This document shows positions 1 through 15,738 of a DNA stretch of 25,943 nt, piece after piece. How positions within the stretch are numbered: position 1 is the first letter of the stretch; each line of letters begins with the position of its first letter. Source of the stretch: a virus (taxonomy: Duplodnaviria > Caudoviricetes); the IMG/VR virus record IMGVR_UViG_3300020138_000016, positions 1 to 25,943 of that record. One strand, given 5' to 3'. The notes beneath the pieces are model-generated. The model did not search any database. It was not told the origin of the DNA and worked only from the letters and a program-made list of their open reading frames with translations. Made by a program: the position numbers and the translations under genes.

Positions 1-42
1 CGGGTTAAAGTGGCGTCCCCACGGGGATTCGACCTTAACCCG
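1..42. other. Recombinase attachment (att) site: 42-bp imperfect palindrome around a central AC dinucleotide, containing a tRNA-Glu 3'-end fragment
   Basis: Left arm 1-20 (cgggttaaagtggcgtcccc) matches the reverse complement of right arm 23-42 (cgggttaaggtcgaatcccc) at 16/20. The minus strand of 11-32 reads TCGAATCCCCGTGGGGACGCCA, the T-arm/acceptor/CCA end typical of proteobacterial tRNA-Glu. It lies at the 3' end of a serine recombinase gene. Confidence 0.75.
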
Positions 43-1656: not shown

Positions 1657-3549
1657 TCAATCCTTTGCGGCCAGTTCGGCCTGCAGCCATTCCGGCGGCG
1701 TGGCGCGGTGGAAGCGGCACGTTTGCCAGTAGAGGCGCGCGCGGGCCATGACCGACACGCGCGCAAATCGGGCGCCGATGCCTTTGGCCGCCTGCCTGGT
1801 ACGCACGTCGCCCGCCAGGCGCCAGTTGTTGACGGTGGCGGTGGATACGCCGGCGAGGCGGGCGGCGGCGGCCAGGTTGATCCAGGTCGACGGAAGCTCA
1901 CGCGGCGGGCGGGGTGCGCTCGTCGCGGCGCGCTTCAGCTTGGCCAGCATCGGCGCGGTGATGTAGAGCCGCCGCTGATCCCAGCGTGCGCGGGTGATGC
2001 GGATGGTGCCGTCCTTGATGCGGTCACGCACCCAGGCTTGTGGCCTGCCGATTTCGGCGGCCGCTTCGGGGATGGTATAGCCCTGCTGCGAGTTGAGCCG
2101 CTTGATGACGGCCTGCACGGTCGCGAGGGGGATCAGCCCTTCCTGGCGCCAGTGGACGCCATCGAGCAACGTGCGCAGGGCGGCCACGCTGACGCCGACC
2201 TTGGCAGCCGCCTGCTCGATGGTATAGCCGATGTCCTGGCGCAATTCCGCCACCTGCTGGCGCATCACGAGGCGCTTGCCGGCGGTGGCGCGGGCGTTCA
2301 CGCGCTGGTCGGCGATGAAGGCCTCGATCTCCGCGCGCGTGAAGTCGTACCAGCGGCCGGCGGTGCGAATGGAGATCCACGAGCCTTTGCCGCTGCCATC
2401 CGGGTGCTTCCGAGCGGCCCAGCGGGTGGCGTCGGTCTGGGTGATGCGATAGCTGCGGCCATGCGTGCTCGCGCGCAATGCGCCGCTTTGGATGGCGTCG
2501 ATGACCCGCTGGTAACTCTGCCGGGTTTGCCGGGCGACTTCCGCTGGGGTGAGGCCGGGTTTCCACACCAGCGTCAGGTGGCGCTTGGCGCCGTGAGCCA
2601 GGGGCGGATAGCGCTCGCAGTATTCGGCGAATGTTTTGGGTGCGCCGGCGGCGCCCCAGATGGTTTGGCAGGTTGCGCAGCTGGCGGGGTGCTTGCGGGC
2701 CACCCACCGCGCGTGGGAATGCTTGAGGTTGCCCAGCAAGGGCTTGCCGTGCCACGGCATGGGCCTACCGGCGTGGCGATCGGCGACGAGCTTGCGCGCC
2801 ACCTTGGGGTCGACGTACCAGGTGCCGTTCTTGCCGGTATGCACGCCAGGCTTGGCGGGGTTGCAGCGGATGGCCGTGGGGATGTAGCCGGCCTGGGCAA
2901 ACTCCGGCAGTTTGGCGTCGCTGCTGATGCCCAGCGGCTCGCGCAGGCTGGCCAGGTGGACGTAGCCGGGTGGGGCGATCGCGCGGGTGGATTTCCACCG
3001 CGCCCATTCCGCATGCGGGATGACGAAGAGGCGGCCGACGCGGTGGGTCTTGAGTCCCTTGGCGCGGATCGCGTTGCGCACGATTTCCACCGAGCCGATC
3101 TCGGCGGCGGCCTGCTGGATGGTGATGCCGCCGACCACGTCGGTGGCTTGCATACCCATGCGGTTGATGCGGATTTGCACCGATTGCTCGTTGCGCGCCG
3201 CGCCTTCATCGCCCGTAATGCGCTGCAGGCGATCCGTCAGGATGGCCGATATCTCCGGCTTGGCCAGGCGGCCGACCAAGCTGGCGAGCAGCTCGTCTTC
3301 CGGCGGCAGCCACTGGTAGGCGCCGGCGCCGCGGCGCAATGGGGCGGGCCAATCCACAGCGGCTGGTGGTCGGCCGTGCCAGCGTGCAAACAAGTCGGCG
3401 AATATCTCCACGTCCGATGCGCGCGCGCGGGCCGCCGAGCCGGCTGAGCGAGCTTTGCGCACGGCCGCGATGGGTTGGCCGACGATTGCTGCCAGGTAGT
3501 GCGCAGGGAAGCCGCCGCCGGCGCTGGCGACGAAGGCTTGCCAAGTCAT
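1657..3549 (-). CDS. Large DNA-binding protein with about 6-7 tandem excisionase/MerR-like HTH units
   Basis: Repeated units such as GITIQQAAAEIG..., GLTPAEVARQT..., GYTIEQAAAKVGVS..., GYTIPEAAAEIGR..., WINLAAAARLAGVSTATVNNW. ATG 3549 overlaps the upstream stop (ATGA); alternative start at 3555. Confidence 0.75.
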   Translation of the reverse strand: MTWQAFVASAGGGFPAHYLAAIVGQPIAAVRKARSAGSAARARASDVEIFADLFARWHGRPPAAVDWPAPLRRGAGAYQWLPPEDELLASLVGRLAKPEISAILTDRLQRITGDEGAARNEQSVQIRINRMGMQATDVVGGITIQQAAAEIGSVEIVRNAIRAKGLKTHRVGRLFVIPHAEWARWKSTRAIAPPGYVHLASLREPLGISSDAKLPEFAQAGYIPTAIRCNPAKPGVHTGKNGTWYVDPKVARKLVADRHAGRPMPWHGKPLLGNLKHSHARWVARKHPASCATCQTIWGAAGAPKTFAEYCERYPPLAHGAKRHLTLVWKPGLTPAEVARQTRQSYQRVIDAIQSGALRASTHGRSYRITQTDATRWAARKHPDGSGKGSWISIRTAGRWYDFTRAEIEAFIADQRVNARATAGKRLVMRQQVAELRQDIGYTIEQAAAKVGVSVAALRTLLDGVHWRQEGLIPLATVQAVIKRLNSQQGYTIPEAAAEIGRPQAWVRDRIKDGTIRITRARWDQRRLYITAPMLAKLKRAATSAPRPPRELPSTWINLAAAARLAGVSTATVNNWRLAGDVRTRQAAKGIGARFARVSVMARARLYWQTCRFHRATPPEWLQAELAAKD

Positions 3550-4496
3550 CGGCATTCGAGTTCGTCCTCCAGCGCGCGACGGCCGGACATGACTTGCTGC
3601 GGCGACAGGCCGGCGACGGTGGCCAGCAGGCTGACCACGGGGTCAGTAAGCATCTGCAGGCGCGGCGTGGCGATGTCGCGCATGGCGCGGTCCCACTGGC
3701 TGAACGTGGTGGGCAGGGCGGGCTTGATCCGCGGCGCCTCGAGCGCGACTTGCTTCATCGCGTCGGCCATCGGCAGGCGCACTTTCTCCACACCGCGCCG
3801 GCTGAAGCAGAAGAATTCGCCCGGGCCCAGCGCCGCGAGGGCGGCAAACTCGATCTTCGACGACCGGAACTGTGGTGCCAGCGCGGCCCACGCCGCGGGA
3901 TCCTCCTGGCAGCCGATCAGGCTGAGGTTCTTGTTCGCGAAGATGTGCCGGTGCAGCGAGCCGGTGAAGCTGGTCGCGGTCATGAACAGGTCCAGCGCGC
4001 GCTTGCGGCCGCGCTGGGCAATTTCGTTGACCAGGTCCGAGGCGACGCCCACGTCGTTCTTTCGCTTGCGGCTGGCGCTGAACACCTGGCCTTCGTCGAG
4101 CATGACGAACATGGGTTTGCGGTGTGTGTCTGCGGCCTCGAGGATGACCCGCCCGAAGGGAATGAATTCCGTGGCGTCCCGCGCCGAGACCACCACGATG
4201 TTGCGGTCGCGCTTTTCCAGCACGGCTTTCAGCTCGGCGGCATCGATGGACGGGCCGTACATCGATTCGATCTCGCCCTCGGGATCCACCAGCACGCTCA
4301 CCCATCCCTGGCTCGCAAGCTGCTCGCCGATCAGCAGGCCGGCGTTGGTCTTGCCGGCGCCGCTGGGCCCCACGGCCACGACGCGCAGGCCGGTGGTGGC
4401 GTAATCCGCCAACTCGATGAGCTGGCCGCCCAGGTCCAGGTGGGCTTCGGCCAATTCGGTGCGGCGGATGACGTGGCGGGAGGTGGTATCAGCCAT
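3546..4496 (-). CDS. P-loop ATPase, HerA/FtsK (DUF87)-like, 316 aa
   Basis: Walker A GPSGAGKT, LVDPEGE, Walker B MFVMLDEGQVF and the RGRKRAL arginine-finger motif of HerA/VirB4-like ATPases. GGAGG RBS before ATG 4496. Confidence 0.85.
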   Translation of the reverse strand: MADTTSRHVIRRTELAEAHLDLGGQLIELADYATTGLRVVAVGPSGAGKTNAGLLIGEQLASQGWVSVLVDPEGEIESMYGPSIDAAELKAVLEKRDRNIVVVSARDATEFIPFGRVILEAADTHRKPMFVMLDEGQVFSASRKRKNDVGVASDLVNEIAQRGRKRALDLFMTATSFTGSLHRHIFANKNLSLIGCQEDPAAWAALAPQFRSSKIEFAALAALGPGEFFCFSRRGVEKVRLPMADAMKQVALEAPRIKPALPTTFSQWDRAMRDIATPRLQMLTDPVVSLLATVAGLSPQQVMSGRRALEDELECR

Positions 4497-5013
4497 GGTT
4501 GGCCTCCCGCGCGCTGAGCACGATGTCCTTGAGGCGCAGCTGCTGCGCGGAGGAGAGCGCGAACACCACGGCGAAATCGTCAATGACCTGCGGCGTCACC
4601 TGTTCCAGCAGGCCGGCCCGACGTGCCTGCGCGAGGTATTTGCGCAGGTCCGACCAATCGGCGGCGTTGACGCCGCCGGCAGGCAACCCCTGGATTTCCG
4701 CGTGCAACTGGTCGAGGGTGTAGAGGTTGGCAGCGTCGCCAAGATCCGCCTGCAGGCGTTCGTTGAGCAGGGACAGCAGCTGCAGCGGCGTCATGTAGCC
4801 GTAGACCTTGCGGATAAGCGCCTTCTCGGCCGCGGTGAAATCGCGGGCGGCGCCCGCCGAGGCGCTGGACGTTGGCAGAGGGCCGAGGCGGCGGGCGGCA
4901 GGGTGCTGCCGGCAATCGCTACAGATGGCGCGCGCGAAGTCGTCGCGGGGGTGATCCTGCGAGAGGCGCGCGGTGCAGAGGCGGCACTTCACCAGGCCGG
5001 GTTGGGCGTTCAC
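4489..5013 (-). CDS. Hypothetical phage protein with an N-terminal CxxC...CxxC zinc finger, 174 aa
   Basis: GTG start overlaps the upstream stop (GTGA). CRLC...CSDC is followed by a helical domain DFTAAEKALIRKVYGY... Confidence 0.7.
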   Translation of the reverse strand: MNAQPGLVKCRLCTARLSQDHPRDDFARAICSDCRQHPAARRLGPLPTSSASAGAARDFTAAEKALIRKVYGYMTPLQLLSLLNERLQADLGDAANLYTLDQLHAEIQGLPAGGVNAADWSDLRKYLAQARRAGLLEQVTPQVIDDFAVVFALSSAQQLRLKDIVLSAREANHG

Positions 5014-5267
5014 CGACGCACCTCCACCAGCCTGGAAGCGCATTGCGGCAGGCCGCCAGCGACGATGATGTCGCCGTCGGCATCTACCGCGAAGTAGTCT
5101 TTGCCGGTATCCGGGTCGCGCCACTGGACGGCACGTGGATCATTCCAACCGGTGGCGCCAGGCGTTGGCACCAGCCTCGGGAGGATATCGCCAGGCTCCA
5201 CGTGCGGGCATTCGGGGCAGCAATCCCAGTCGCGCTCATGCGCGGCACCACAATTCAGGCAGGCCAT
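5010..5267 (-). CDS. Small Cys-rich hypothetical protein, 85 aa
   Basis: MACLNCGAAHERDWDCCPECP. TGATG and GTGA overlaps with its neighbours. Confidence 0.65.
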   Translation of the reverse strand: MACLNCGAAHERDWDCCPECPHVEPGDILPRLVPTPGATGWNDPRAVQWRDPDTGKDYFAVDADGDIIVAGGLPQCASRLVEVRR

Positions 5268-6427
5268 CAGATGGCCTCCGACGCACGTTGACGGTGTTGC
5301 GCGCTGCCTGCGAATGCGTAGTGGTCGAGGCTGGCTACGAAACGCAGCGCCATCGCGGCGGTCTGGATGGCTTCCGTGCGGACGTCGCCTGTTGTGCTTT
5401 TGTGCGGCTCGTATGTCGCCTGCATCACCGCTTTGGTCAGCTCGCCGAACTCCTCGCCGAGCACGCCAATGGCGTGCAACGGGTCGGTGGGCCAGGTCGG
5501 GAACTTGGCGGTTGCTGTTTCGATTTCCGCCATGACCGCGGGCAGGATGGCATCCACTGCAGTGGCTGGGCCGAGCGCCTGCATGGACAACAGGACCGCG
5601 CGTACGCCTTCGCGAATCGAGGCGTCCAGTACCTCGACCGAAGGGTTACCCTCGGGATGCGTCTCCATCGCCATGCGGGACACGCAGGCAACCTTGTATG
5701 CGTGCACCGCGTGATCCAGGACCGCAGCCGGCGGCGCCGCGCGATCGGGCGGGATGTGCTGCCAGGTCGGCTCGATCGCTTCGCTGTTGTCTTCCGCGCC
5801 CAGCCACTGAGCGCCTTCCTCCGGATACTCGGTGCAGTAGACGTACAGGCCGGCCGGAGCCGTCGGGTTGTCTGGCCAGTGGTTGGCGGGAAAGTACTCC
5901 ACGGTCATGTCGCCATTCGAGCCACCGAAGAACGACAACAGCGTTTCGGCCTGGCCCAGCGTGAACTGCATGGACGTGCGGGGAGCATTCGCAGTTGTCG
6001 GCGCCCTGGAGGCCGTGATGGCCTCACCGCGCTGATGCAGGAACATGCAGAAGTTGGCCACGTCAAGGGGATCACCTTTTTCGACGTGCGCGCGCAACAT
6101 GTCCGACAGTCGCTGATGCATGCCGGGCTCATTGTTGTTCCAGCCGCCGCGACCCTTCGCGCGCGCAGCGGCAAGCTTTTGTTTCATCGACGCCGCAAAC
6201 CGGTCGACGGCATCGTCGTGGGGTAGAACGGGCTCGCCCATGAAGGTCGGACCGTTGGCCTCCTTCGCGAGGTCGCCGACAAGGCGATCGATGGTGTTTT
6301 CGGCCAGGCCTAATTCGTGCGACACCAGTTCGATGTCGGCGCGCCGGGCATCGAGACCTTGCTGGTCATCCAGGTAAATGTCATGCCTTAGGCGATGGAT
6401 GGCATTGTTGAGCGCAGTGGTATTCAT
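5267..6427 (-). CDS. Mosaic phage early protein with a C-terminal MazG-like (all-alpha NTP pyrophosphatase) domain, 386 aa
   Basis: ATG 6427 overlaps the ParB-like stop (ATGA). C-terminus VLGEEFGELTKAV...VRTEAIQTAAMALRF follows the EExxE...ExxD/Q pattern. An internal module reads MKQKLAAARAKGRGGW...KGDPLDVANFCMFLHQRG. Confidence 0.7.
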   Translation of the reverse strand: MNTTALNNAIHRLRHDIYLDDQQGLDARRADIELVSHELGLAENTIDRLVGDLAKEANGPTFMGEPVLPHDDAVDRFAASMKQKLAAARAKGRGGWNNNEPGMHQRLSDMLRAHVEKGDPLDVANFCMFLHQRGEAITASRAPTTANAPRTSMQFTLGQAETLLSFFGGSNGDMTVEYFPANHWPDNPTAPAGLYVYCTEYPEEGAQWLGAEDNSEAIEPTWQHIPPDRAAPPAAVLDHAVHAYKVACVSRMAMETHPEGNPSVEVLDASIREGVRAVLLSMQALGPATAVDAILPAVMAEIETATAKFPTWPTDPLHAIGVLGEEFGELTKAVMQATYEPHKSTTGDVRTEAIQTAAMALRFVASLDHYAFAGSAQHRQRASEAI

Positions 6428-8256
6428 TTCGCACGCCCCTTCGCGGCTTTTTTCTCGGGCGCGTTCTTGGCTTTTCGGGCGGCCGGTTTTTTCGTTACCG
6501 GCTTCTTTGCCGCCTTGGTCGGCGCTGCCGATTTCTTCGGCGGTGCAGCCTTCTTTGCCTTCGGCGCCGACCGCGGGCGCAGCGGTGGCGGCAACCATCC
6601 CTCCGGGAAGTGCTTGAGCGCAGCGCCCGGTAAATTCGCCTTCGCCACGTTCCGCAGCAGTGCCAATTCGACCTCGGGCGCGCCGGCGCCTTTCGCCAGG
6701 TCCAGGATGGCGGCCTTGGGCAGTGTGGCCAGCCATTCCTCGGTGGGTGACCACGCCGCCGACAAGTCGGTTTGCGTCATGTCGGCGAGATCGGCGACCG
6801 TTTCCTTCTTGGAGCCGGCTGATACTTCGACGCCATCGACCTCCCGCGCGACAAGGAAGGCGAGGAGCTTCTCGACGGTCGCTTCGTCTTGCCGGAGGAT
6901 CCACGCACGCGCGTCGCTGCGGTTCCTTGGCAGCAGTGCTTTCCATTCCTTCAGCTGATCATCCATCCGGTTTGCGGCCGGCGCGCGGCCGCTGATCTTT
7001 GCGATGTTGCCATGCATGCGGCCGCCAGCTTCGCGGCTGATGTGGACGAAGGTACGCGAGCCGACCCAACCGTCGTAGAACACGGAATCGGCAAGTTCGG
7101 CGGCCAGCAGCGCGATCGCCACTTTCGGCTTCGTGGACAGATCGAGCGCGATGATGTCGCTAGCCTCGGCCTGAAGCCGTTGCACGGCGGCGAACGACAG
7201 TTCGCCGGGCTTGTGTGCGGGCTTATCCTTGCCGCCGGATACCTTCTCGCCGGTGGCGGCGGTCATCGCCTTGCGGTCTGCTGGCCGTACCAGGCCGCGC
7301 TTGATCTCGGCCTGGCCGTTGTAGCCCAGCGACACGATGGCGCCGGCGTGCGCTTTCGCTTCGGCCGACCACGTCTCCTTGCTTCCTTTGTACTCGCTGG
7401 GCGCATTGCCGAAACCATCGCGGTGTTGGTAGTACTCGAACTTCAGGCGCGGCTCGACCCAAAGCCAACCCTCTTTGCGGATTTTCTCGGCAGTGCGTTC
7501 GAGTTTCTCCAGCGCGAGCTTCTCGGCCAGTTCGGCGTCCATCAGGAAGGCGTCGGCATCGGTGCCGAACATGTCGCGACGCACCTGTCCACCGGCTTTT
7601 TCGTAGGCGGCGAGGCCCACGAATTTTGCGAGCGATGAATCGGCCGCCAGCTCCTGTTGGGTGATCACTTCGCGCAGGCGCCGCGGCTCGCGTTGCCATT
7701 CGTTCTTTGCAGCTTTCCAGACCCGCAACTGCACGGCCTGGTCGTCGGTGAGCGCCAGCGCCATCATCTGCTCGAGGGTGGCATTGCCGGCGCGGTAGTC
7801 GGCCAGGATGTCGGGGGCGACGTTGGCCAGCTTGAGACGCTGGCGCACGAACAGCTCGGACTGGCCGAAGCGTGCGGCGATCTCGGACACGGGTAGCCCG
7901 TCGTCGACAAGCCTCGCGAAGGCGTCGCATTCGTCGGCGGGGTGCATTGCGTGGCGCATGACGTTTTCGGCGAGGCTGGCCTCACGGCTCTGGCCATCCT
8001 CGATCACGCGGCAGGGAATGCCGGCCGCCAGCGTTTCGGGCAGCGTGCCAGCCTCCTGGAGGGCCTGCAGCGCCTTGAGGCGGCGGCCGCCGGCGACGAC
8101 GGCGTAGCCGCTGTCGTTGCGCGTTACCGTGAGGTTGTGGATGAGGCCGTGGTGCACGATCGATGCGGCGAGGGACTCGACCGATGCGCCGCCGGTCTTG
8201 CGCACGTTGAGGTATGTCGCATGCAGCTGCGACAGCGGGATGGCTTGGATGCTCAT
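6424..8256 (-). CDS. ParB/RepB/Spo0J-family protein with a Lys/Ala/Pro-rich histone H1-like tail, 610 aa
   Basis: NVRKT...LAASIVHHGLIHNLTV...VVAGGRRLKAL...SLAENVMRHAMHPADEC is the ParB N-domain with arginine patch. HTH VSEIAARFGQSELFVRQRLKL. AGGAG RBS and ATGA overlap with the RT stop. Confidence 0.88.
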   Translation of the reverse strand: MSIQAIPLSQLHATYLNVRKTGGASVESLAASIVHHGLIHNLTVTRNDSGYAVVAGGRRLKALQALQEAGTLPETLAAGIPCRVIEDGQSREASLAENVMRHAMHPADECDAFARLVDDGLPVSEIAARFGQSELFVRQRLKLANVAPDILADYRAGNATLEQMMALALTDDQAVQLRVWKAAKNEWQREPRRLREVITQQELAADSSLAKFVGLAAYEKAGGQVRRDMFGTDADAFLMDAELAEKLALEKLERTAEKIRKEGWLWVEPRLKFEYYQHRDGFGNAPSEYKGSKETWSAEAKAHAGAIVSLGYNGQAEIKRGLVRPADRKAMTAATGEKVSGGKDKPAHKPGELSFAAVQRLQAEASDIIALDLSTKPKVAIALLAAELADSVFYDGWVGSRTFVHISREAGGRMHGNIAKISGRAPAANRMDDQLKEWKALLPRNRSDARAWILRQDEATVEKLLAFLVAREVDGVEVSAGSKKETVADLADMTQTDLSAAWSPTEEWLATLPKAAILDLAKGAGAPEVELALLRNVAKANLPGAALKHFPEGWLPPPLRPRSAPKAKKAAPPKKSAAPTKAAKKPVTKKPAARKAKNAPEKKAAKGRAK

Positions 8257-9614
8257 CGCGTGAGATCGCTCCTGATGGTGATGGGCCTGCCATGCAGGCG
8301 ATGGGAAAAGCGCTGCGGTTGCGCAGCGGCGGTAATCCAGGGAAAGCGTTGCCGCAGGCGATGGGCCAGTCGGCGGGTGGCGGCGTGCTTCAGGTGGCCG
8401 GCATAGCTGGCCAGCACGGTGCGGATGTGGTCGAAATCGGCGGGCGTGCCGTGCATGGTGTCGCCGCGCACGTGGGCGGATTCCCACTCGGCCAGCGCCT
8501 GGCGAAGGTGAGTGACGACGCGCCGGCGCGCCAGCAGATGCGTGGGGTAGATGATGTAGCCGAGGAAGTCGAGGCCCGCGGTCAGTGGCCGCAGCTTTAC
8601 GTCGGCTTTCAGCCGCAGGTCGAGCTCGGCGGCGAGGAATACCTCGATTTGCTGCTGCCAACGCACCAACTGCTCGCGGTCGTGGTGGAACAGGACGAAG
8701 TCATCCACATAGCGCAGGTAGCGCTTCGCGCGCAGCGTGTGCTTGACGAACTGGTCCAGCTTGTCCAGGTAGACGTTGGCCAGGAACTGGCTGGACAGGT
8801 TGCCGATGGGCAGGCCGCAGCGCGGTCGCGCGTTGCAAAGGCGCTTGTGCGTTGGCACCAAGGCCAGTTGTGCCGGCGTGGCGCGTTCGCGTACGCCGGC
8901 CTGTAACGGGTTGCCTCGCAACAGCGCGTGCGTCGTCGCGACGATCGTCGGCGACAACCCGGCGCGCAGCAGCACCGGCTTCATGGTGCGCCACAATTTA
9001 TCGCGGCGGATGGAGATGAAGAAGTTGGCGATGTCGAGCTGCAGGTAATAGCCGCTGCCCTGGCCGGAGTAGACCTGGCGCACGCACGCATGGGCGTAGC
9101 GGACGGCGGCGTGGCTGCCCTTGCTCTTGCGGTTGGCGTAGCTGTGCGCGTAGAAGCGCGGCTCGTAGACCGCCTCCAGCGGCGGCACGATCAGGTGATG
9201 CACCACGCGATCGCGGAAGGGCGGGGCGTGGATCTCGCGTGCCTTGGGGCGCGTGGCCACGAATGTGGTGGTGGGGCCAGGTGACCACGTGGCCGTGTTG
9301 AGCTCGGCCTGCAGATTGAGCAGGCCATCGATGAAGTGTGCGTCGAAAGCCAGCTTGTCGAAACTGGGCTTCTTGCCGCGGCGAGCGGCCATGTAGGCAT
9401 CGTAGAGAGGGCGCAGCTGGACGCCCTCGGCACCCTGAAACTCACGGGCACGCCGGCACGCGAGACCGAACCCGCTGTTGTTGCGGTGGTTGTTGTTCAC
9501 GTTGCCGTTGTGGAGATTGACGTTGAAGGCGGACGCCGAAGACCACGGCGCCGCGTCCCCGCGCACTTGCGACTCTGCCGCACAGGCCTTTTTCGGATAG
9601 CGCGGCGTCGTCAT
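8253..9614 (-). CDS. DGR reverse transcriptase, 453 aa (N-terminal codons include the template repeat)
   Basis: Motifs PKAREIHAPPFRDRVVHH, YLQLDIANFFISI, GLPIGNLSSQFLANVYLDKLDQFVK (DGR-type SQ motif), YLRYVDDFV, GLDFLGY. No maturase or endonuclease domain. ATG 9614 overlaps the avd stop (ATGA). Confidence 0.95.
   Translation of the reverse strand: MTTPRYPKKACAAESQVRGDAAPWSSASAFNVNLHNGNVNNNHRNNSGFGLACRRAREFQGAEGVQLRPLYDAYMAARRGKKPSFDKLAFDAHFIDGLLNLQAELNTATWSPGPTTTFVATRPKAREIHAPPFRDRVVHHLIVPPLEAVYEPRFYAHSYANRKSKGSHAAVRYAHACVRQVYSGQGSGYYLQLDIANFFISIRRDKLWRTMKPVLLRAGLSPTIVATTHALLRGNPLQAGVRERATPAQLALVPTHKRLCNARPRCGLPIGNLSSQFLANVYLDKLDQFVKHTLRAKRYLRYVDDFVLFHHDREQLVRWQQQIEVFLAAELDLRLKADVKLRPLTAGLDFLGYIIYPTHLLARRRVVTHLRQALAEWESAHVRGDTMHGTPADFDHIRTVLASYAGHLKHAATRRLAHRLRQRFPWITAAAQPQRFSHRLHGRPITIRSDLTR
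9444..9551 (-). repeat. DGR template repeat (TR), 108 nt
   Basis: GCG CCG TGG TCT TCG GCG TCC GCC TTC AAC GTC AAT CTC CAC AAC GGC AAC GTG AAC AAC AAC CAC CGC AAC AAC AGC GGG TTC GGT CTC GCG TGC CGG CGT GCC CGT. It has 21 adenines, 18 of them in nine AAY codons, and aligns without gaps to both VRs. Confidence 0.96.
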
Positions 9615-10054
9615 GCGTTGGCCCTCGATCGGGCGGCGCGGGTACTCAGTTTCTTGCCACGCTGTGCGGAGGCCTCGGCCTGCACATTCCGGGCATTGGG
9701 GTGCGTTTCCAGGCTTCGCTTCCAGCCACCGGCCTGCTTGCCGATTTCGCAGGCGCGCACCATGAGCCGCTCGAATTGCGCGAACGATTGGTAGGCGCGA
9801 ACTAGCTTGCAAACCTGCAGGCGATCCTTCAGGTCGTCGACGGCATCGACCAACTTGTCGGCATAGAACCGCCGCTGGTCCTGGCGCTGCCACGTACGGG
9901 TCGCACAGCGCATCACTGTTTCGGCCTGGAGCCGCAGCGCGGCGCCCGACTGATAGCGGTGGTAGCGCGGGAACTTGCGCACAACCTGTTCGATGTCCGC
10001 GCATAGATTGCGCGCGGCATCGACGATAGGCGGCGGCTGGAAGCGTGAGGCCAT
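9611..10054 (-). CDS. avd: DGR accessory variability determinant (Avd-like four-helix bundle), 147 aa
   Basis: Basic helical protein with VRKFPRYHRYQSGAALR and EIGKQAGGWKR motifs, in the canonical position between target and TR. Confidence 0.9.
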   Translation of the reverse strand: MASRFQPPPIVDAARNLCADIEQVVRKFPRYHRYQSGAALRLQAETVMRCATRTWQRQDQRRFYADKLVDAVDDLKDRLQVCKLVRAYQSFAQFERLMVRACEIGKQAGGWKRSLETHPNARNVQAEASAQRGKKLSTRAARSRANA

Positions 10055-10073
10055 TTCAATCAATCCAATGGCC
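10049..10073 (-). other. Hairpin just downstream of VR1 (candidate DGR target-recognition stem-loop)
   Basis: Minus strand GGCCATT-GGATTGATTGA-AATGGCC starts 2 nt after the target 1 stop. The 3' arm includes the avd ATG. Confidence 0.5.
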
Positions 10074-10075
10074 GA

Positions 10076-10696
10076 TTACTGACGGGCACGCCGGCACGCG
10101 AGACCGAACCCGCTGTAGCTGCGGTGGAAGCTGTGCACGAGGCCGTAGCGGAGACTGACGTCGAAGGCGGACGCCGAAGACCACGGCGCTACCGTGCTGG
10201 TCCAGTACCAGTCGTCGGTCGGCAGGTCGGGGAACAGGTTCTTGTCCACGGCCGGTTCGTGGTAGCAGCGGTCGATGACGTGCCTCTCGTAGACCGTGTC
10301 CGGCGCCAGTTGCCAGTCGTTGTAGCCGAGCAGCTGGAGGGTTTTGCCGGCCTCTTCGGTGGCCTGCTGGCTCTTGAATGGACGGCCATTCGCCGCGAGC
10401 GACTTGACCGCCACTATCCAGCCGGTGTCGGGAAACAACACGGCTACATGATCGGTGCGGGGATCCGAAGCGGGCACCTCGTTGCCATCCGCCAGGATCT
10501 TCCGTGGCGCGGCGTCGTCTTTCGCCGCGGAGCGATCGGCGACCGCGATGGCGCTTGCCAACGGCGCCGCGAGGAAGCCAGCAAGGCCGCTGAGCGGGTT
10601 GGAATCGAGCCGGACGATCAGGTCGCCGGCCACGTGGATGAAGGGTGTTGCTGCTTTTGCTTCGTGCAATGGCAGCGTATGGTTGGCTTCGCTCAC
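10076..10696 (-). CDS. DGR target protein 1, DUF1566/Lcl-like C-type-lectin fold, 206 aa
   Basis: AAAGGAG RBS and GTG start overlapping the upstream stop. Motifs LLGYNDWQL...PAVDKNLFPD...WYWTST; VR1 at the C-terminus. Confidence 0.9.
   Translation of the reverse strand: MSEANHTLPLHEAKAATPFIHVAGDLIVRLDSNPLSGLAGFLAAPLASAIAVADRSAAKDDAAPRKILADGNEVPASDPRTDHVAVLFPDTGWIVAVKSLAANGRPFKSQQATEEAGKTLQLLGYNDWQLAPDTVYERHVIDRCYHEPAVDKNLFPDLPTDDWYWTSTVAPWSSASAFDVSLRYGLVHSFHRSYSGFGLACRRARQ
10082..10189 (-). repeat. DGR variable repeat VR1
   Basis: Ungapped 108-nt match to TR with 12 mismatches, all at TR adenines (e.g. AAC>GAC, AAT>AGT, AAC>CTC, AAC>TTC). Confidence 0.96.
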
Positions 10697-10771
10697 TGGG
10701 TATCTCCTTTGGCGTGGTTGAAACGGCGGATGTGCTCCAGCAGTTCGGTGGGGCACTGGGAATCGGAGAGG

Positions 10772-11185
10772 TCATGCAGGAACCGTTCGGCCTGCGCCAG
10801 CAGACTCCTGGCATCGCGTAACAAGCGTTTGGCGCGGCGCAGGGCGCGCGGGCAATCCGGTGTTATGCCGCAAAAGCTGGCCCAGTCGTCGCCGCAATTT
10901 TTTTTCATCCTCGCGTGCTGGCATTGGCATCCAGCAAATCGGCGTACAGGCCAGCGCTTTCCAGCGCACCGGCAAATCGCAATCACCACCCTCTCCGGTG
11001 TAGCGCGACCCACAGGCCGCCCACCAACCAATGCTGACTTCCGCTTTCTGGCCCATCCGTGGGTCGCCACCGCCCATGTTTGCGTACATTGCCGGCAGCA
11101 CGTTGTAGTGCTCGCCATTCGGTGTTTCGGTCACCAGCACGACTGTTCCGTCGCGCGGCGCGGTTGTCATCGGTTGCCAGCTCAT
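10772..11185 (-). CDS. Cassette-borne DUF551-like phage protein, 137 aa as integrated (may also be read from ATG 11281 as an in-frame fusion)
   Basis: MSWQPMTTAPRDGTVVLV...PICWMPMP matches the WQPxxTAPxDG...WMPLP pattern of phage DUF551-like proteins. GGAGAG RBS. Confidence 0.75.
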   Translation of the reverse strand: MSWQPMTTAPRDGTVVLVTETPNGEHYNVLPAMYANMGGGDPRMGQKAEVSIGWWAACGSRYTGEGGDCDLPVRWKALACTPICWMPMPAREDEKKLRRRLGQLLRHNTGLPARPAPRQTLVTRCQESAGAGRTVPA

Positions 11186-11256
11186 GTCGCTCTCCGGGGT
11201 TGCGGCATAACAATTCAATCCAGCCGACCAGCTCCGCTGGCGGCTGATTTCAGGTG
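10863..11256 (+). mobile_element. Integron-type gene cassette (394 bp) integrated at a secondary G/TT site
   Basis: Begins at core site G/TTATGC (10862-10868) and ends in an attC. The 13-bp segments 10861-10873 and 11200-11212 are perfect inverted repeats. GGTGTT occurs at both junctions. Excision restores an ORF. Confidence 0.82.
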
Positions 11257-11262
11257 TTGGCT
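11205..11262 (+). other. attC recombination site (59-base element), 58 bp
   Basis: R'' GCATAAC, spacer AATTC, L'' AATC(C)AGCCG, (A), CCAGC-TCC-GCTGG, L' CGGCTGATT, spacer TCAGGT, R' GTTGGCT. Two extrahelical bases (G and T on the bottom strand) and 5/6-nt spacers, as in canonical attC sites. Confidence 0.87.
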
Positions 11263-11277
11263 TGAGCGGCTTGATGC

Positions 11278-11556
11278 TCATGAGCGGCTGCACCGGAATC
11301 GTCGGCTGGCCTTGATCTGCCGGGCTGCCTTCAGCCCTTCCTGGGTGAGCGTTAACGCGCTCGGAAAGGCCGGATTGTCGAACGCGAACAGGCCGTCGCG
11401 CTCCAACTGGTTGGCACAGCGCCTGGTCACCGCGACCGGCTGGGCAGGGCGGCTGGAAACGAATCCTTCGCGCGTGCGGCGCAAGGTATGCGCAGGTGTT
11501 TCCAGCGCGGCCATGAGTGCGGCGCTGACGGCCGGCGTATAGGCGGTGGCGATCAT
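11278..11556 (-). CDS. Hypothetical protein, possibly winged-helix, 92 aa
   Basis: MIATAYTPAVSAALMAAL...VTRRCANQLERDGL...LTLTQEGLKAA. ATGA overlaps at both ends. Confidence 0.7.
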   Translation of the reverse strand: MIATAYTPAVSAALMAALETPAHTLRRTREGFVSSRPAQPVAVTRRCANQLERDGLFAFDNPAFPSALTLTQEGLKAARQIKASRRFRCSRS

Positions 11557-11771
11557 GCAGCACCACCCAGGGCGCGCTCGACGATGCGGCTGAGGTAATC
11601 GGGATCGTGCGCGGCGAGCCACAACGATGCGACGAAAAACGACAGCCATATGACGGTTGCCACAACGATCTGGCGGCGCGACAGCGGCGCTTGGGATATG
11701 GGGCTCTTGCGCTCCCGGCCATCGTCCGGGCGACGGAGCAATGCGTGGCGGTGAAGCGATTGGCCGGCCAT
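11553..11771 (-). CDS. Small membrane protein, 72 aa
   Basis: Hydrophobic segment IVVATVIWLSFFVASLWLAA. TGATG and ATGA coupling. Confidence 0.65.
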   Translation of the reverse strand: MAGQSLHRHALLRRPDDGRERKSPISQAPLSRRQIVVATVIWLSFFVASLWLAAHDPDYLSRIVERALGGAA

Positions 11772-12073
11772 CAGACCCACCCCGCCCAATGCGCGAGCAA
11801 ACCAAGCGCCGCGACGATGACCAGTGGCGCGAGCGCGCCAGCCAGGTCCCGCCACCCCGAATGTTTTTGCGGCGCGCGGGCCGGCCCGATGCTGCCGATG
11901 GCACGCATGGGCGCCTTCGCATTGGCCCGAAATTCGCTGCGCAAGGTGCGGAGCTGCCGATACCGTGATTCCCTGGCGGCCTCGGTGGCGCGCTTGGCCG
12001 CAAGCAACCGCTCCAGACGCGCCTGCACCTGCCGGTCAGTCAGCTGCTGGTTTTCGGTGCGAGGTGCCGTCAT
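11771..12073 (-). CDS. Hypothetical protein with a C-terminal membrane anchor, 100 aa
   Basis: MTAPRTENQQ...LAGALAPLVIVAALGLLAHWAGWV. GAGG RBS. Confidence 0.65.
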   Translation of the reverse strand: MTAPRTENQQLTDRQVQARLERLLAAKRATEAARESRYRQLRTLRSEFRANAKAPMRAIGSIGPARAPQKHSGWRDLAGALAPLVIVAALGLLAHWAGWV

Positions 12074-12075
12074 GA

Positions 12076-12333
12076 CTACGCCTCGCTTGCCATGCGGCGG
12101 CTTTCGAACCACTGGAAGATCACGGTGATCGTGCCTTCTGCGTAGTTGCCAAGCTGCTTGCTGTGGCACCGCTGCTCGTATTCGGAGCCGTCGGCGCGCA
12201 GCAGCGTTTCGATCTTGTCGGGCTTCCACTCGTGGACCATTTCGGGGAGCGCGATGCGATCGAATTCTTCTTTCGTCCTCGGCCCCGCAAAAACGGTGGT
12301 TTCCGAAAGCACTGAGCAAAACGATGACGTCAT
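12076..12333 (-). CDS. Hypothetical protein, 85 aa
   Basis: GGAGA RBS before ATG 12333; fills the gap within the leftward operon. Confidence 0.6.
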   Translation of the reverse strand: MTSSFCSVLSETTVFAGPRTKEEFDRIALPEMVHEWKPDKIETLLRADGSEYEQRCHSKQLGNYAEGTITVIFQWFESRRMASEA

Positions 12334-12363
12334 GGCGATGGTCTCCGTCAGCAAATGGGCCAA

Positions 12364-12819
12364 TTACTGACGGGCACGCCGGCACGCGAGACCGAACCCG
12401 CTGAGGCTGCGGCGGCCGTAGCCCACGTAGCCGAGGCGGAGATCGACGAGGAAGGCGGACGCCGAAGACCACGGCACTACCGTGCTGGTCCAGAACCAGT
12501 CGTCGGCAGGCAGGTCGGGGAAGAGGTTGGTGTCGACGGCGGGGTCGTAGCGGTCGTGCGTCAGCACGTGGCGCAGCCAGACCTCATCGAGCGGGGCGTT
12601 GATCCAGTCCTGGTGGCCCAGCAGGTCCAATGCCTTGGCGGCCGCGTCCACGGCATCGGCATTGGCCAGCGGCTCGTACTCTTCGCCGGCGAGCGCCTTG
12701 ACCGCCACCATCCAGCCGGTGTCGGGAAACAGCACGGCCACGTGGTCGGTGCGCGGATCGCTGGCGGGCACCTCGGTGCCATCGGCCAGGATTTTCAGCG
12801 GGGTGGTGCTGGTGTTCAT
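12364..12819 (-). CDS. DGR target protein 2, DUF1566/Lcl-like, 151 aa; first gene of the leftward early operon
   Basis: Paralog of target 1 (shares KILADGxEVPASDPRTDHVAVLFPDTGW and PAVDxNLFPDLPxDDWxWTSTV). VR2 at the C-terminus; GGAGAG RBS. Confidence 0.92.
   Translation of the reverse strand: MNTSTTPLKILADGTEVPASDPRTDHVAVLFPDTGWMVAVKALAGEEYEPLANADAVDAAAKALDLLGHQDWINAPLDEVWLRHVLTHDRYDPAVDTNLFPDLPADDWFWTSTVVPWSSASAFLVDLRLGYVGYGRRSLSGFGLACRRARQ
12370..12475 (-). repeat. DGR variable repeat VR2
   Basis: Ungapped 106-nt match to TR with 16 mismatches, all at TR adenines. The first non-A mismatch (12476) marks the 5' boundary. Confidence 0.96.
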
Positions 12820-12959
12820 GCGGCGCTCTCCGGTGAGTGGAGGGCGCCGGCGGGTCGTTGGCTAGGCCTGCAAGGGTTCAGGCCTTCGCGCTACCGGACA
12901 GGGGTTCCGGCGGGTGGCGACCCGCCGGTCGCCCGCCCCGGATGGCCGGGGCGGGAAAG

Positions 12960-13003
12960 ATTGCAAACTATCTTGCAAAAATTGTCAACAAGTTTTTTTG
13001 CAT
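12960..13003 (-). promoter_or_regulatory. Leftward early promoter (pL-like) with two 18-bp operators
   Basis: TTGACA-N17-TGCAAT on the minus strand (12988 to 12960). Operators TTGCAAACTATCTTGCAA (12961-12978) and CAACAAGTTTTTTTGCAT (12986-13003) match those between cI and cro. Confidence 0.8.
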
Positions 13004-13075
13004 TGCTAGATGCCGGTGTCGGATTGCCTATACTGTTTGCCGGGGTTTGGCGGGTATAGAAGGGGGGTACGTGCT

Positions 13076-13429
13076 ATGGCTTCAGGGGCATCCGTTGGAC
13101 GGCGCGGAGTCGCGCTCACTATTGGTTTCGGAATCTGCTCGGCGCTCGGACTCATGTGCGATGCACATGCAAGCGATGGCCGCATGGAAGGGCTGTCGCT
13201 TTGCCAGGAGGCGATCAAACGCGTGGCGACCAATCCCTCTTCGGCGCACGTGCCCTATACCAAGGATTACGGTTCAGCAACGGAGCATTATTTCGCGTGG
13301 CCGAAAGGGTCAGGACTGACCATGATGAATGGATTTGGCGCCAACATCGACGTGAGCGCGGCCTGCACCACCACTGGTGATGGCGCGCGGATTACGAGCC
13401 TGAGCGTCAACGGCAAAACAATCCTGTGA
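13076..13429 (+). CDS. Putative exported accessory protein in the immunity region, 117 aa
   Basis: Signal-peptide-like N-terminus (RRGVALTIGFGICSALGLMCDAHA/S) and AGGGGG RBS. Convergent with cI. Confidence 0.7.
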   Translation: MASGASVGRRGVALTIGFGICSALGLMCDAHASDGRMEGLSLCQEAIKRVATNPSSAHVPYTKDYGSATEHYFAWPKGSGLTMMNGFGANIDVSAACTTTGDGARITSLSVNGKTIL

Positions 13430-13436
13430 GGCCGCG

Positions 13437-13865
13437 CTAGCTTCGAGGTTTGCCACGCGGCGTGCGGGACTCGCCCGCCGCATCCATCATGACCAACACG
13501 GCCTTTCGCACTTCATTGCCGCAATCACGGTAAAGGTCGATCAGTCGACGCTCATCAGCTGCCATAGGGAAGCCATATTCCCCGGCCGGATCTCGGACTG
13601 CAAACGCTGGGCGCGAGTCAGTGGCATGCGGGCCATAGACGGGCATGCCTGGCACCCACGCACGGAGCTCCTCGACCGTCTTTCCGAACGCGCAGGCGAG
13701 CTCGATGAGATAGCGAGGGCGTGTATTCGGCTTGGCCTCGAGCTGTTGCAGGTGCTGGTGCTGTACCTTCGGAGCTCCGCAACGTCTGACGTTGGCGGCG
13801 AGTTCCTGCAACGTCCATCCGTTGGCCGCCCGAAGAGCCGCTATGTTTTCGCCTAGCGGTTTCAT
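13437..13865 (-). CDS. cI: CI-like XRE-family repressor lacking an S24 peptidase domain, 142 aa
   Basis: HTH LGENIAALRAANGWTLQELAA...HLQQLE...LIELACAFGKTVEEL. Divergent from cro. Short C-terminus DERRLIDLYR. Confidence 0.85.
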   Translation of the reverse strand: MKPLGENIAALRAANGWTLQELAANVRRCGAPKVQHQHLQQLEAKPNTRPRYLIELACAFGKTVEELRAWVPGMPVYGPHATDSRPAFAVRDPAGEYGFPMAADERRLIDLYRDCGNEVRKAVLVMMDAAGESRTPRGKPRS

Positions 13866-13929
13866 GCAAAACATTTTGCATTGTTGACTGACAAAAATGC
13901 TTGCATTACCTTTGCAAGAAATCTTGCAA
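13864..13929. promoter_or_regulatory. OR-like operator triplet and rightward promoter
   Basis: 18-bp sites ATGCAAAACATTTTGCAT (13864-13881), TGACAAAAATGCTTGCAT (13889-13906) and TTGCAAGAAATCTTGCAA (13912-13929). Candidate pR TTGACT-N17-TACCTT (13884-13912). Confidence 0.82.
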
Positions 13930-13939
13930 GGTTCAGGCA

Positions 13940-14167
13940 ATGTCTGCGCTCGAGAAGGCCATCACAATTTGCGGCTCGCAGAGCGAGCTCGCCCGTCGGA
14001 TAGGCGGCAAGGTCCGCACTGGGCATATCCACTATTGGCTCAAGAACCGGGTGCCGGCTGATCGGTGCGGGGACATTGAGACAGCCACGGAAGGCAAAGT
14101 CACCCGCCACGACCTCCGCCCCGACGTCTTCGGCGAGCCCAACCCCGCCACCGCGAGGGCCGGCTGA
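13940..14167 (+). CDS. cro: Cro-like (YdaS-family) regulator, 75 aa
   Basis: MSALEKAITICGSQSELARRIG...VPADRCGDIETATEGKVTRHDLRPDVFG is the typical YdaS/Cro pattern. Confidence 0.9.
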   Translation: MSALEKAITICGSQSELARRIGGKVRTGHIHYWLKNRVPADRCGDIETATEGKVTRHDLRPDVFGEPNPATARAG

Positions 14168-14168
14168 T

Positions 14169-14426
14169 ATGGCCATCATCAGGAGCGATCTCATGCGTGG
14201 ATTGATCGAACGTGCGCGCGTCGCCGTGCGCGACTGGCTTACCGCGCCTACAGCAGCTGAACGCGACGCCGTGCGGGCAATGCTCAGGAGACGGAGGGCG
14301 TTGCATCCAACAGACCTTCCACCAGTCGCGGAAGTGCCTGGTTCGACGCCAGTTCCGGCGACGGCGAATCCAGCATCTCCTGCAGCGTCGCCCGAATGTC
14401 CTGCAGATACGAGGAATCCTGGATGA
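14169..14426 (+). CDS. Hypothetical protein, overlapping an opposite-strand gene
   Basis: ATG immediately after the cro stop; N-terminus ...LIERARVAVRDWLTAP looks coding. Confidence 0.4.
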   Translation: MAIIRSDLMRGLIERARVAVRDWLTAPTAAERDAVRAMLRRRRALHPTDLPPVAEVPGSTPVPATANPASPAASPECPADTRNPG

Positions 14427-14511
14427 GCACCGGCAGGATGTGTTCCACCAAATGTTCGAGTGCCGCGAGTCGCTCGGCCGCGTTCTCCAGCGTGACGGTT
14501 GTCGGTTCCAT
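14284..14511 (-). CDS. Reverse-oriented accessory protein, 75 aa
   Basis: Acidic helical sequence with a GGAGA RBS inside repeat copy A. Confidence 0.65.
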   Translation of the reverse strand: MEPTTVTLENAAERLAALEHLVEHILPVLIQDSSYLQDIRATLQEMLDSPSPELASNQALPRLVEGLLDATPSVS

Positions 14512-15064: not shown

Positions 15065-15165
15065 ATCGTTGGACGCCACAGGGTGCGGCGCGGCGAAGCA
15101 CGGCCGGTGAAGTGGCGGGTTGGTGTTCATGCGGCACAGCTTGCCGTCAAGGCCCGGGTGCGCGC

Positions 15166-15738
15166 ATGAAGCCCGCGCCTCATTTCATGCCGCCGCTGCA
15201 GAGCGTCGTCTACGGCTACACCCGTCGTGTGCTGGATGAGACGGCGACGAACGCGCAGTCGTTCGCGATGGTGGTGGCCGAGCAGTACCTGGCGCTGGTG
15301 GCGCCGGATGTGCGGGGTGTTCCGCTACGGCTGGGCGATGATCCGGCAAGCGACATGCGCAATAACGCGCAGATCCTGCGTCGGTACATGGACGGCACCG
15401 TCAAGGTGTTGCCGGCCGACCTGCTCGATGCCTGGGTGCTGTCGCTGCCCGAGCCGTATCGCGGCGAGTGCGAGCGTGACCTGGCGCGCCGCCGCGGCCT
15501 GCTGGCGGTGCGCATGCCTGCATCGGTCGAAGCGTCGCGGGCTGTTGGTCTTGCCGAATTGGCTGGTGACTTCGGGCGGTTGATCGAGGCGGTGGCGCCG
15601 GCGCTGGCCGACGGCGTCATCAACGCCAGCGACCTGCCGTATGCCCGCCGCATCCTCGACGAATCCGACGATTTGATCGCCGCCGTGCTCGCGATGCGCA
15701 AGCAGGTGCAGGCGATATTGCCGGACGTGCATTCGTGA
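15166..15738 (+). CDS. Putative CII-like phage regulatory protein, 190 aa
   Basis: Lies downstream of cro. C-terminus ALADGVINASD...ILDESDDLIAAV resembles phage CII/YmfL-like proteins. Confidence 0.6.
   Translation: MKPAPHFMPPLQSVVYGYTRRVLDETATNAQSFAMVVAEQYLALVAPDVRGVPLRLGDDPASDMRNNAQILRRYMDGTVKVLPADLLDAWVLSLPEPYRGECERDLARRRGLLAVRMPASVEASRAVGLAELAGDFGRLIEAVAPALADGVINASDLPYARRILDESDDLIAAVLAMRKQVQAILPDVHS

Follow-up and report, generated by a model that had tools for sequence, protein, structure and literature searches.

How a gene cassette of the integron type comes to lie inside a phage operon, with its gene on the strand opposite to the usual one, is the question raised by a stretch of 25,943 nucleotides from the IMG/VR virus record IMGVR_UViG_3300020138_000016 (Duplodnaviria; Caudoviricetes), hereafter referred to as the window. 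The element concerned occupies 394 bp and consists of an attC, the recombination site of integron cassettes, together with a protein-coding gene, here called the cargo. Integron cassettes are known as a bacterial gene store, read from the cassette promoter Pc on the attC top strand. Judged from its letters, the 394-bp stretch is an insertion with the anatomy of a single integron cassette linearised at the integrase cut site, and a 64-aa phage gene is destroyed by it. We consider it highly probable that an integron-type cassette interrupts codon 9 of this gene, in the leftward operon of a temperate phage carrying a diversity-generating retroelement (DGR), and that it arrived through the action of a host integron integrase.

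The attC site

An attC is made up of the core sites R'' and R' and, between them, the imperfect inner repeats L'' and L', and the consensus of R'' is RYYYAAC. The site in the window is laid out as follows.

11205-11262, plus strand (attC top strand): attC, 58 nt
11205-11211: R'' (GCATAAC)
11212-11216: spacer, 5 nt
11217-11232: L'', 16 nt
11233-11235: loop
11236-11249: L', 14 nt
11250-11255: spacer
11256-11262: R' (GTTGGCT as integrated)

When positions 11190-11270 are compared by BLASTN with 72,556 plasmids, 738 plasmid records are matched, and the top matches fall at the 3' ends of catB10 and catB3, which belong to the class 1 arrays aacA4/catB10/blaOXA-4/aadA8 and aacA4/catB3/blaOXA-10 (78-81% identity over 61-64 nt, best E 3e-5). 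The match lies on the catB strand, so the plus strand of the window is the attC top strand. Aligning the window attC with those of catB3 and catB10 gives 20 pairs (RNAalifold), four of them with compensatory double changes. As DNA, the bottom strand folds at -13.2 kcal/mol (z -2.5) into a short R stem, an unpaired 5/4-nt spacer, a 14-bp L stem and a 3-nt loop, with a bulged T and a bulged G in the bottom-strand arm on the R'' side, opposite 11220/11221 and 11227. Qi et al. 2023 (PMC9892861) give the R' consensus as G↓TTRRRY; R'' and R', the latter in its integrated as well as its circular form, agree with their consensus at six of seven positions each, AAC and GTT being kept.

A covariance model, R1, was built from these three attCs (window, catB3 and catB10). 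On the plus strand, and on that strand only, the window site reaches 82.3 bits (E 7e-21) with R1, a score that is not independent since the site is one of the training sequences. The blaOXA-4 attC, from outside the training set, is found at E 0.027, and the aacA4 attC in locus L035 is missed, so the sensitivity of R1 is limited. R1 detects no second attC within the 25.9-kb window. By sequence and predicted structure, the site is a genuine attC, homologous to bona fide attC sites, and not a chance palindrome.

Cassette ends and the interrupted gene

The right-hand GTT occupies 11256-11258, which places the cassette at 10863-11256, and the following features define its two ends and the gene that it splits.

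10863-11256, plus strand (attC top strand), cargo on the opposite strand: whole cassette, 394 bp, with G↓TT at 10862/10863 and at 11256/11257
10861-10873, plus strand: left end of the cassette, repeating the R'' region (11200-11212) in inverted form over 13 nt without a mismatch
11257-11281, minus strand: 5' piece of the 64-aa gene, codons 1-8; codon 9 straddles the junction, with cassette bases 11256-11255 supplying its remainder
10693-10862, minus strand: 3' piece of the 64-aa gene, starting with the final two bases of codon 9 (T) and continuing as PDCPRALRR...GDTQ to the stop

An exact complement of R'' at the left end is expected of a circular cassette that has been linearised, and with the circle closed at the two GTTs, the left end would complete R' as GTTATGC. 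Once 10863-11256 is removed, the minus-strand peptides MSIKPLKPTP (11281-11252) and TPDCPRALRR...GDTQ-stop (10863-10693) fall into one frame; codon 10 of the former (11254-11252) is cassette sequence and encodes the same residue by coincidence. A search with the unchanged 3' piece as query found nine proteins, namely the window's own call and eight relatives of 76-86% identity. Seven of these eight are 64 aa long and one is 66 aa; they start MSIKPL..., MSVKPL... or MSMKPP..., with MSIKPL in several.

A natural empty site is provided by a syntenic 49.9-kb viral contig (L155), in which 2104-2517 aligns with window 11684-11265 (74%) and 2538-5192 with 10850-8196 (82%), the gap between the aligned blocks being about 20 nt there versus about 415 in the window. 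The order in L155 is a phrog_27259-like gene, the intact 64-aa gene (2501-2695), a DGR target, Avd, the template repeat and the reverse transcriptase. These flanks bear on the idea that the element is not a fresh single insertion but all that is left of an integron array or attC cluster, since decayed, that was once present in the phage or in adjacent host DNA. Arrays do occur in many viral contigs of this attC type, but the flanks here are two halves of one small gene, intact in L155 and in the eight protein relatives, and the 25.9 kb hold no second attC, which leaves the remnant explanation extremely unlikely.

The junctions bear equally on an assembly artefact, in which a bacterial integron cassette would have been joined into a phage contig. 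In its favour, the depth is about 7.6 and the sole sequencing run found to hold the stretch is perhaps its source. Against it, 10300-11681 is covered with zero differences by a Logan contig of 1593 bp, from a second assembly of the same run, both junctions fall at G↓TT within one frame that closes perfectly without the insert, and the cargo gene, of a phage family, points the same way as the operon; we therefore judge an artefact very unlikely. That run, present as contigs only, yields no joints, excised circle or empty-site variant and, as it may be the window's own source, does not count as an independent sample.

On its upstream side, the frame of the split gene also stays open up to an ATG at 10908, inside the cassette (10693-10908, minus strand), and corresponds to a 71-aa protein of the source's gene caller (P0027). 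A GAGG abuts this ATG, a poor spacing that makes its translation doubtful.

The cargo gene and its family

As the first-pass annotation had read from the sequence, the cargo lies on the attC bottom strand with its own ribosome-binding site (RBS), no stop interrupts its frame within the cassette, and the bottom strand of attC is itself open in frame from an ATG at 11281.

10772-11185, minus strand: cargo open reading frame (ORF) as integrated, 137 aa plus stop, from ATG 11185 to TGA 10774-10772
11185-10862, minus strand: family core, residues 1-108, to ...LLRHN, delimited by homologs
10861-10775, minus strand: 29-residue tail from flanking DNA
11186-11281, minus strand: in-frame upstream extension through the attC bottom strand from ATG 11281, which would give a 169-aa fusion

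The RBS, GGAGAG at 11195-11190, ends 4 nt before the ATG, with its GGAG core 6 nt before it, and the gene starts 20 nt (19 intervening bases) from R''. ATG 11281 overlaps the stop of the upstream gene as ATGA. Without a stop in the cassette, the cargo would end in RHNT-stop in a circle or array, where the TGA of the L'-R' spacer of attC would serve, a junction that the sequence indeed reads as proposed earlier; as integrated, it gains a foreign tail instead, which had been counted as 30 residues and is 29 long.

The annotated phage-type character of the cargo is borne out by 25 homologs, which support its assignment to a phage-associated family. Most homologs are 111-128 aa long, begin a few residues ahead of a W-x-P-M-x-T-A-P-x-D-G-T motif and end 5-10 residues after ...KLRRRLxQLxR. 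The closest relatives, P0002 (92%) and P0001 (81%), have ...LLRHN in common with the window and diverge directly after it, at the cassette edge, a pattern that fits three different flanks for the three sequences. More distant relatives lie in phage-like operons of viral contigs as large as jumbo phages (340 and 167 kb), on a Pseudomonas megaplasmid and in metagenome contigs. A metagenome scan for cargo DNA returned the window itself and relatives of at most 79% identity, and a degenerate ...LGQLLRHN pattern hit five loci in viral contigs, none of which encodes a cargo relative.

Neither Pfam (E <= 0.01) nor PHROGs match the cargo. Membership in DUF551 (PF04448) finds no backing in Pfam, where 0/26 family members match at E <= 1, and leads in that direction are weak ones from fold and language-model comparisons. 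The AlphaFold model (predicted local distance difference test score 75) shows five strands and a C-terminal helix; its best fold matches in BFVD are weak (E 2e-3 to 0.3, template modelling score 0.3-0.65), many of them labelled DUF551, a PDB fold search with the model gave nothing better than E 0.25, and the nearest language-model cluster is a DUF551 cluster (0.91). The cargo would be a small beta-rich domain with a C-terminal helix, at best similar to DUF551.

Cassettes of the same build in viral contigs

Whether this arrangement recurs was surveyed within one attC subtype, with viral and bacterial loci chosen by different rules and 'viral' meaning the IMG/VR classification, plus PHROG matches for single-attC loci. 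An exact IMG/VR scan with a 20-letter pattern from the conserved R''-L'' half collected 118 viral stretches. Of the 118, the 100 loci numbered L037-L136 were scanned with R1 (L137-L154 being left out), which gave 243 matches at E <= 0.01, of which the best 150 were kept (alignment A4).

An exact complement of the locus's own R'' lies upstream in 14 of the 18 loci read as single-attC within 1.5 kb. Ten of these 14 single cassettes, read by eye, carry a bottom-strand ORF with a GGAG-type RBS, and four are canonical; all four bacterial single sites read by eye look canonical. In the inverted singles the ORF starts 15-30 nt after R'' (about 75 nt in L083, which also has a promoter-like TTGACT...TATTCT). 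With L080 included, 10 of 11 inverted singles are co-oriented with flanking phage-family genes, the exception being L058. Their neighbours comprise portal, PAPS-reductase-like, NinG region, DNA methyltransferase, DnaB, RecE-like, Gam-like and other genes; the presence of a portal gene shows that these are not early genes alone, as an anticipated preference for early operons would have it.

Two of these loci touch the window in other ways. At L080 (777-1151 and 1430-1525), just outside another inverted cassette and beside a Gam-like gene, stands a protein weakly related to the cargo (34% over 106 aa); the two kinds of gene have one accessory region of phage genomes in common. At L095 (1464-1560, minus-strand attC), an unrelated cargo is preceded by the same R'' as in the window, GCATAAC, and by a very similar 23-nt leader to the ATG (window 11185-11212). 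Read in frame, the leader gives NCYAELPENDM in L095 and NCYAATPESDM in the window, and P0001 starts ...PERSM; attC and leader may form a reusable module.

Strand of the cargo in viral and bacterial arrays

For arrays, cassettes were taken between consecutive same-strand attCs 300-1300 nt apart with duplicates removed, and their longest ORFs, if 90 aa or more, were compared with Pfam (E <= 1e-5) and, for the viral set, with PHROG (E <= 1e-4). The bacterial set comprised 30 loci with 86 attCs.

Viral arrays, top strand: 32 ORFs; 2 Pfam matches (both in L126, a catB-bearing class 1-like array) and 1 PHROG match (L126)
Viral arrays, bottom strand: 28 ORFs; 8 Pfam matches and 14 PHROG matches, of which 8 are DNA methyltransferases
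Bacterial genomes, top strand: 39 ORFs; 6 Pfam matches
Bacterial genomes, bottom strand: 20 ORFs; 0 Pfam matches

An inverted signature was defined by a bottom-strand ATG or GTG no more than 75 nt past R'' that is preceded, at 4-16 nt, by an RBS-like word and opens a frame of 50 codons or more; duplicates were removed, as were sites for which the upstream sequence was shorter than 420 nt. It is present at 76/110 viral versus 2/74 bacterial attCs, and at least one such attC occurs on 43 of 56 viral versus 2 of 28 bacterial contigs, in line with the recurring phage class of inverted cassettes that had been proposed from the window alone. A canonical top-strand start just after attC is seen at 7/113 viral versus 22/75 bacterial sites, and a top-strand ORF ends at R'' in 72 of 74 bacterial attCs. 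Both strand tests are passed by 44 viral sites, the top-strand criterion being lax in GC-rich DNA; for the subset of sites passing one test only, the inverted-only to top-only ratio is 32:29 in viral versus 0:70 in bacterial DNA (Fisher p = 6e-14).

The recurring build is attC, a short leader with an RBS, and an ORF terminating within the core site or shortly after it. Among 24 inverted cassettes from arrays, with L126 excluded, 13 have the stop exactly at the edge, as a core TAA↓C, and six have it 7 nt past the edge (AAC-NCC-TGA, as in the window); it lies further out in two and 7 nt inside in three. The same backward build in most cassettes of viral contigs with this attC type makes that of the window one member of a phage-borne cassette pool. 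An integron integrase was found in none of five viral records with such cassettes, three of which are at least 90% complete.

The bottom-strand DNA methyltransferases are found in the viral arrays L046-L048, L062, L073, L081, L098, L101 and L114, belong to the families N6_N4_Mtase and C-5 DNA_methylase (phrog_67, 363, 799 and 3816), and include those of a methyltransferase-array contig of 38.3 kb (G152) that is 100% complete and has no integron integrase. An expected enrichment of DUF551-like cargo is not seen, DNA methyltransferases dominating with eight of the 14 PHROG-supported ORFs. One record classed as viral, IMGVR_UViG_2834908352_000001 (48 kb; L126/L130), carries a canonical top-strand array with a catB-like hexapeptide acetyltransferase, and resembles an integron of class 1 type that a phage or phage-plasmid carries, or that lies beside a phage.

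Two other ways of calling the strand were too noisy in this GC-rich DNA and gave way to family matches and the fixed start-site signature. The longest ORF gave 13 top, 17 bottom and 27 unclear of 57; a score combining ORF length, G+C at third codon positions and RBS gave 8, 29 and 20 and returned the window as 'ambiguous'.

On the bacterial side, the R1 type of attC occurs in 64 of 151 genomes (G002-G151 sample, from the order of a Luteibacter record), often in arrays and with up to 34 sites per genome. It is plausible that this order is home both to the cassette pool and to the host of the phage.

Arrival and expression of the cassette

The route that best accounts for the window is insertion by an integron integrase of the host. 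During infection or lysogeny, a host IntI would recombine the folded bottom strand of attC with a secondary G↓TT site of the attG type in the phage gene. The cargo would then be transcribed by read-through from the leftward promoter of the phage, and translated from ATG 11185 or as the 169-aa fusion from ATG 11281; the cassette itself would stem from the capture of an ordinary phage gene. The 25,943-bp record has no match to the integron integrase model TIGR02249, and as no intI lies on the contig, the host integrase step is one that we infer. Read-through is suggested by the orientation of the cargo, which is that of all neighbouring phage genes with attC upstream of it on the sense strand, together with a simple scan of 10000-13500 that found no promoter- or terminator-like site.

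The same junctions could have been made by ordinary illegitimate or homologous recombination, the process behind phage mosaicism, with attC as a passenger and no integron integrase acting on the phage. For phage attC clusters, off-target homologous or illegitimate recombination at GTTRRRY-like motifs is proposed in the accessible text of Qi et al. (PMC9892861); here the two junctions have a 6-nt microhomology, GGTGTT, and no intI is on the contig. The insert is, however, exactly one cassette, from the TT after G to the G of R', its left end is a perfect R'' complement over 13 nt, and the same upstream R'' complement stands at 14/18 other single-attC viral loci. Exact ends and R'' complements argue for linearisation of a circle at the integrase site and not for random mosaic joints, and we rate passenger recombination as improbable.

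Several observations weigh against insertion by a host integrase, which we nonetheless prefer. The enzyme is assumed, since the contig, from a record 56% complete, encodes no integron integrase. Positions +6 to +9 of the target read TTGA, a misfit to the CRGM motif of Escherichia coli hotspots as given in the available part of Loot et al. (10.1101/2022.09.11.507474), and R'' as well as R', in its integrated and circular forms, each departs from RYYYAAC or GTTRRRY at one position. With GGTGTT common to both junctions, the crossover cannot be pinned to G↓TT from sequence alone. The window comes from a metagenome assembly of about 7.6x depth, and the cassette is so far single copy at the DNA level. 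R1 finds an attC beside cargo homologs in 0/32 reachable loci. The first-pass annotation had named two findings that would tell against a phage class of inverted cassettes, a lack of other phage examples and homologs never associated with attC; the second is what these 32 loci show, while other phage examples do exist.

The phage and its gene neighbourhood

The window has a G+C content of about 65%, and CheckV rates the 25,943-bp record as 56% complete, hence a fragment. The cassette sits in a long leftward (minus-strand) block, between a regulatory region near 13-15 kb and the integrase.

3-1535, minus strand: serine integrase, by family match; an excisionase-like region is also encoded
6424-8661, minus strand: ParB-like protein
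8253-10004 (frame), minus strand: DGR reverse transcriptase; same order in L155
9611-10063, minus strand: Avd; same order in L155
10076-10756, minus strand: DGR variable protein with an Lcl_C-type C-terminus, the gene downstream of the cassette; same order in L155
11278-11559, minus strand: upstream phage gene, 93 aa, phrog_27259; L155 counterpart at 2232-2504
12364-12819: second Lcl_C-type DGR variable protein
15112-15738, plus strand: CII-like activator, divergent from the leftward block

Past the CII-like gene follow a primase, the small and large terminase and the portal. Between the leftward block and the CII-like gene, at 13000-14500, the G+C content is 59-61%, and this segment is likely to be the regulatory, divergent-promoter region. 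A BLASTN search of a phage collection with 9500-12900 as query gave no match.

The DGR has two targets: a template repeat (...AAPWSSASAFNVNLHNGNVNNNHRNNSGFGLACRRARE, rich in AAC codons) stands directly upstream of the reverse transcriptase domain, and both Lcl_C-type proteins terminate in matching variable repeats (...PWSSASAF...SGFGLACRRARQ); by BLASTN the repeats lie near 9440-9555, 10078-10189 and 12366-12474. Genesis of the cassette by reverse transcription, through the DGR enzyme, was considered and dropped: L155 has the same DGR without a cassette, and the adjacency of the two therefore looks incidental.

Implications

The finding in the window is real and of a known kind, a single cassette at a secondary site; what is unusual is its apparently systematic build, with phage cargo on the bottom strand. 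As a natural and precisely bounded insertion in a phage gene, it supplies field evidence for the attG route, which has so far been demonstrated experimentally in E. coli.

Recent work has presented integron cassettes as anti-phage defence libraries, and the survey points to a mirror-image pool on the phage side, with genes on the opposite strand, cargo rich in methyltransferases and no integrase on the five viral records tested. We put at about even the chances that phages keep their own back-to-front pool of integron-type cassettes, moving by way of host integron integrases and plain GTT sites and loaded with phage-side cargo. In such a pool, each cassette would have attC upstream on the sense strand, which is also the recombinogenic bottom strand, followed by the RBS leader and an ORF ending in the core site or the neighbouring attC, and the cargo would be phage-side genes such as anti-restriction methyltransferases. 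If an inserted attC were to excise with a GTT located farther along the phage operon, it could carry off the downstream phage gene and so give a new cassette, and the window would be an example caught in the act, its empty site kept in a relative.

If this is true, phages would trade accessory and counter-defence genes by means of host integron machinery, the strand rule would allow phage-borne and bacterial cassettes to be told apart simply from sequence, and cassette genesis would be open to direct test, for example as capture of a flanking gene by secondary-site excision. The question concerns both integron biology and gene flow between phages and their hosts.

Comparison with known systems

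A literature search for 'inverted cassette' together with integron in full texts retrieved no paper, and searches on attC, phage genomes, attC clusters devoid of an integron integrase (CALIN) and IntegronFinder retrieved nothing further on gene strand, most subscription journals lying outside the coverage in both cases.

The nearest known systems are single attC sites lacking an integron integrase (SALINs) and attG insertion. According to the accessible part of Loot et al., IntI inserts cassettes at 5'-GWT-3' sites of the genome, termed attG, and bacterial genomes frequently contain single attCs with no integrase, such cassettes being expressed if near a promoter (10.1101/2022.09.11.507474). 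The window has the same features, namely one cassette, one attC with a coding sequence, no intI or attI nearby and a GTT (5'-GWT-3') target in coding sequence, and by the same token its cargo would be expected to be expressed from a neighbouring promoter only. Unlike SALINs, the target is a phage gene with a natural empty site available, the cargo is on the bottom strand and the CRGM motif is missing; phage is mentioned in the part of that article available to us only as an analogy with lambda integrase (Loot et al., 10.1101/2022.09.11.507474). A canonical cassette has a promoterless top-strand ORF ending at or in R'', whereas the sole homology-supported ORF here is on the bottom strand; nor does the record, 56% complete, hold a complete integron, in which intI, attI and Pc adjoin the cassettes, TIGR02249 having no match in it.

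The attCs of catB3 and catB10 are 78-81% identical to that of the window and alike in length (58 versus 60 nt) and stem layout, with compensatory changes between them. Their genes lie upstream on the top strand and stop in R'', whereas the gene of the window is on the other strand and starts 20 nt from R''.

Phage-borne attCs have been described before: in the accessible portion of Qi et al. 2023, 21 phages are reported with integrons and attC clusters of two or more sites, IntI1 recombined five of six phage attCs, and five methyltransferase cargos are predicted (PMC9892861). Bona fide attCs on phages and the prominence of methyltransferases (five there, 8/14 here) are common to both data sets. 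A minimum of two attCs per cluster was required there, which leaves single cassettes untreated, and that portion makes no comparison of the coding strand with the strand of attC (PMC9892861).

Genes that run against the usual direction are also found in bacterial integrons. Toxin-antitoxin cassettes of chromosomal integrons are one example. In the Xanthomonas integron, as the available text describes it, most cassette genes follow Pc, with symE and sRNA-Xcc1 opposite (10.1101/2025.06.18.660453). Cassettes of the symE/sRNA-Xcc1 type resemble the window in that the gene is antisense to the direction of Pc, that is, on the attC bottom strand. They are, however, exceptions for which promoters of their own are expected, whereas the window shows no promoter-like site and its gene spans the cassette from the R''-side RBS to the core site.

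Finally, the element recalls phage morons in being an extra gene dropped between or into the genes of a phage operon and carried along with them. Morons usually have their own promoter and terminator and no defined recombination site. Unlike them, the element in the window comes with an attC and the exact ends of a recombinase product.

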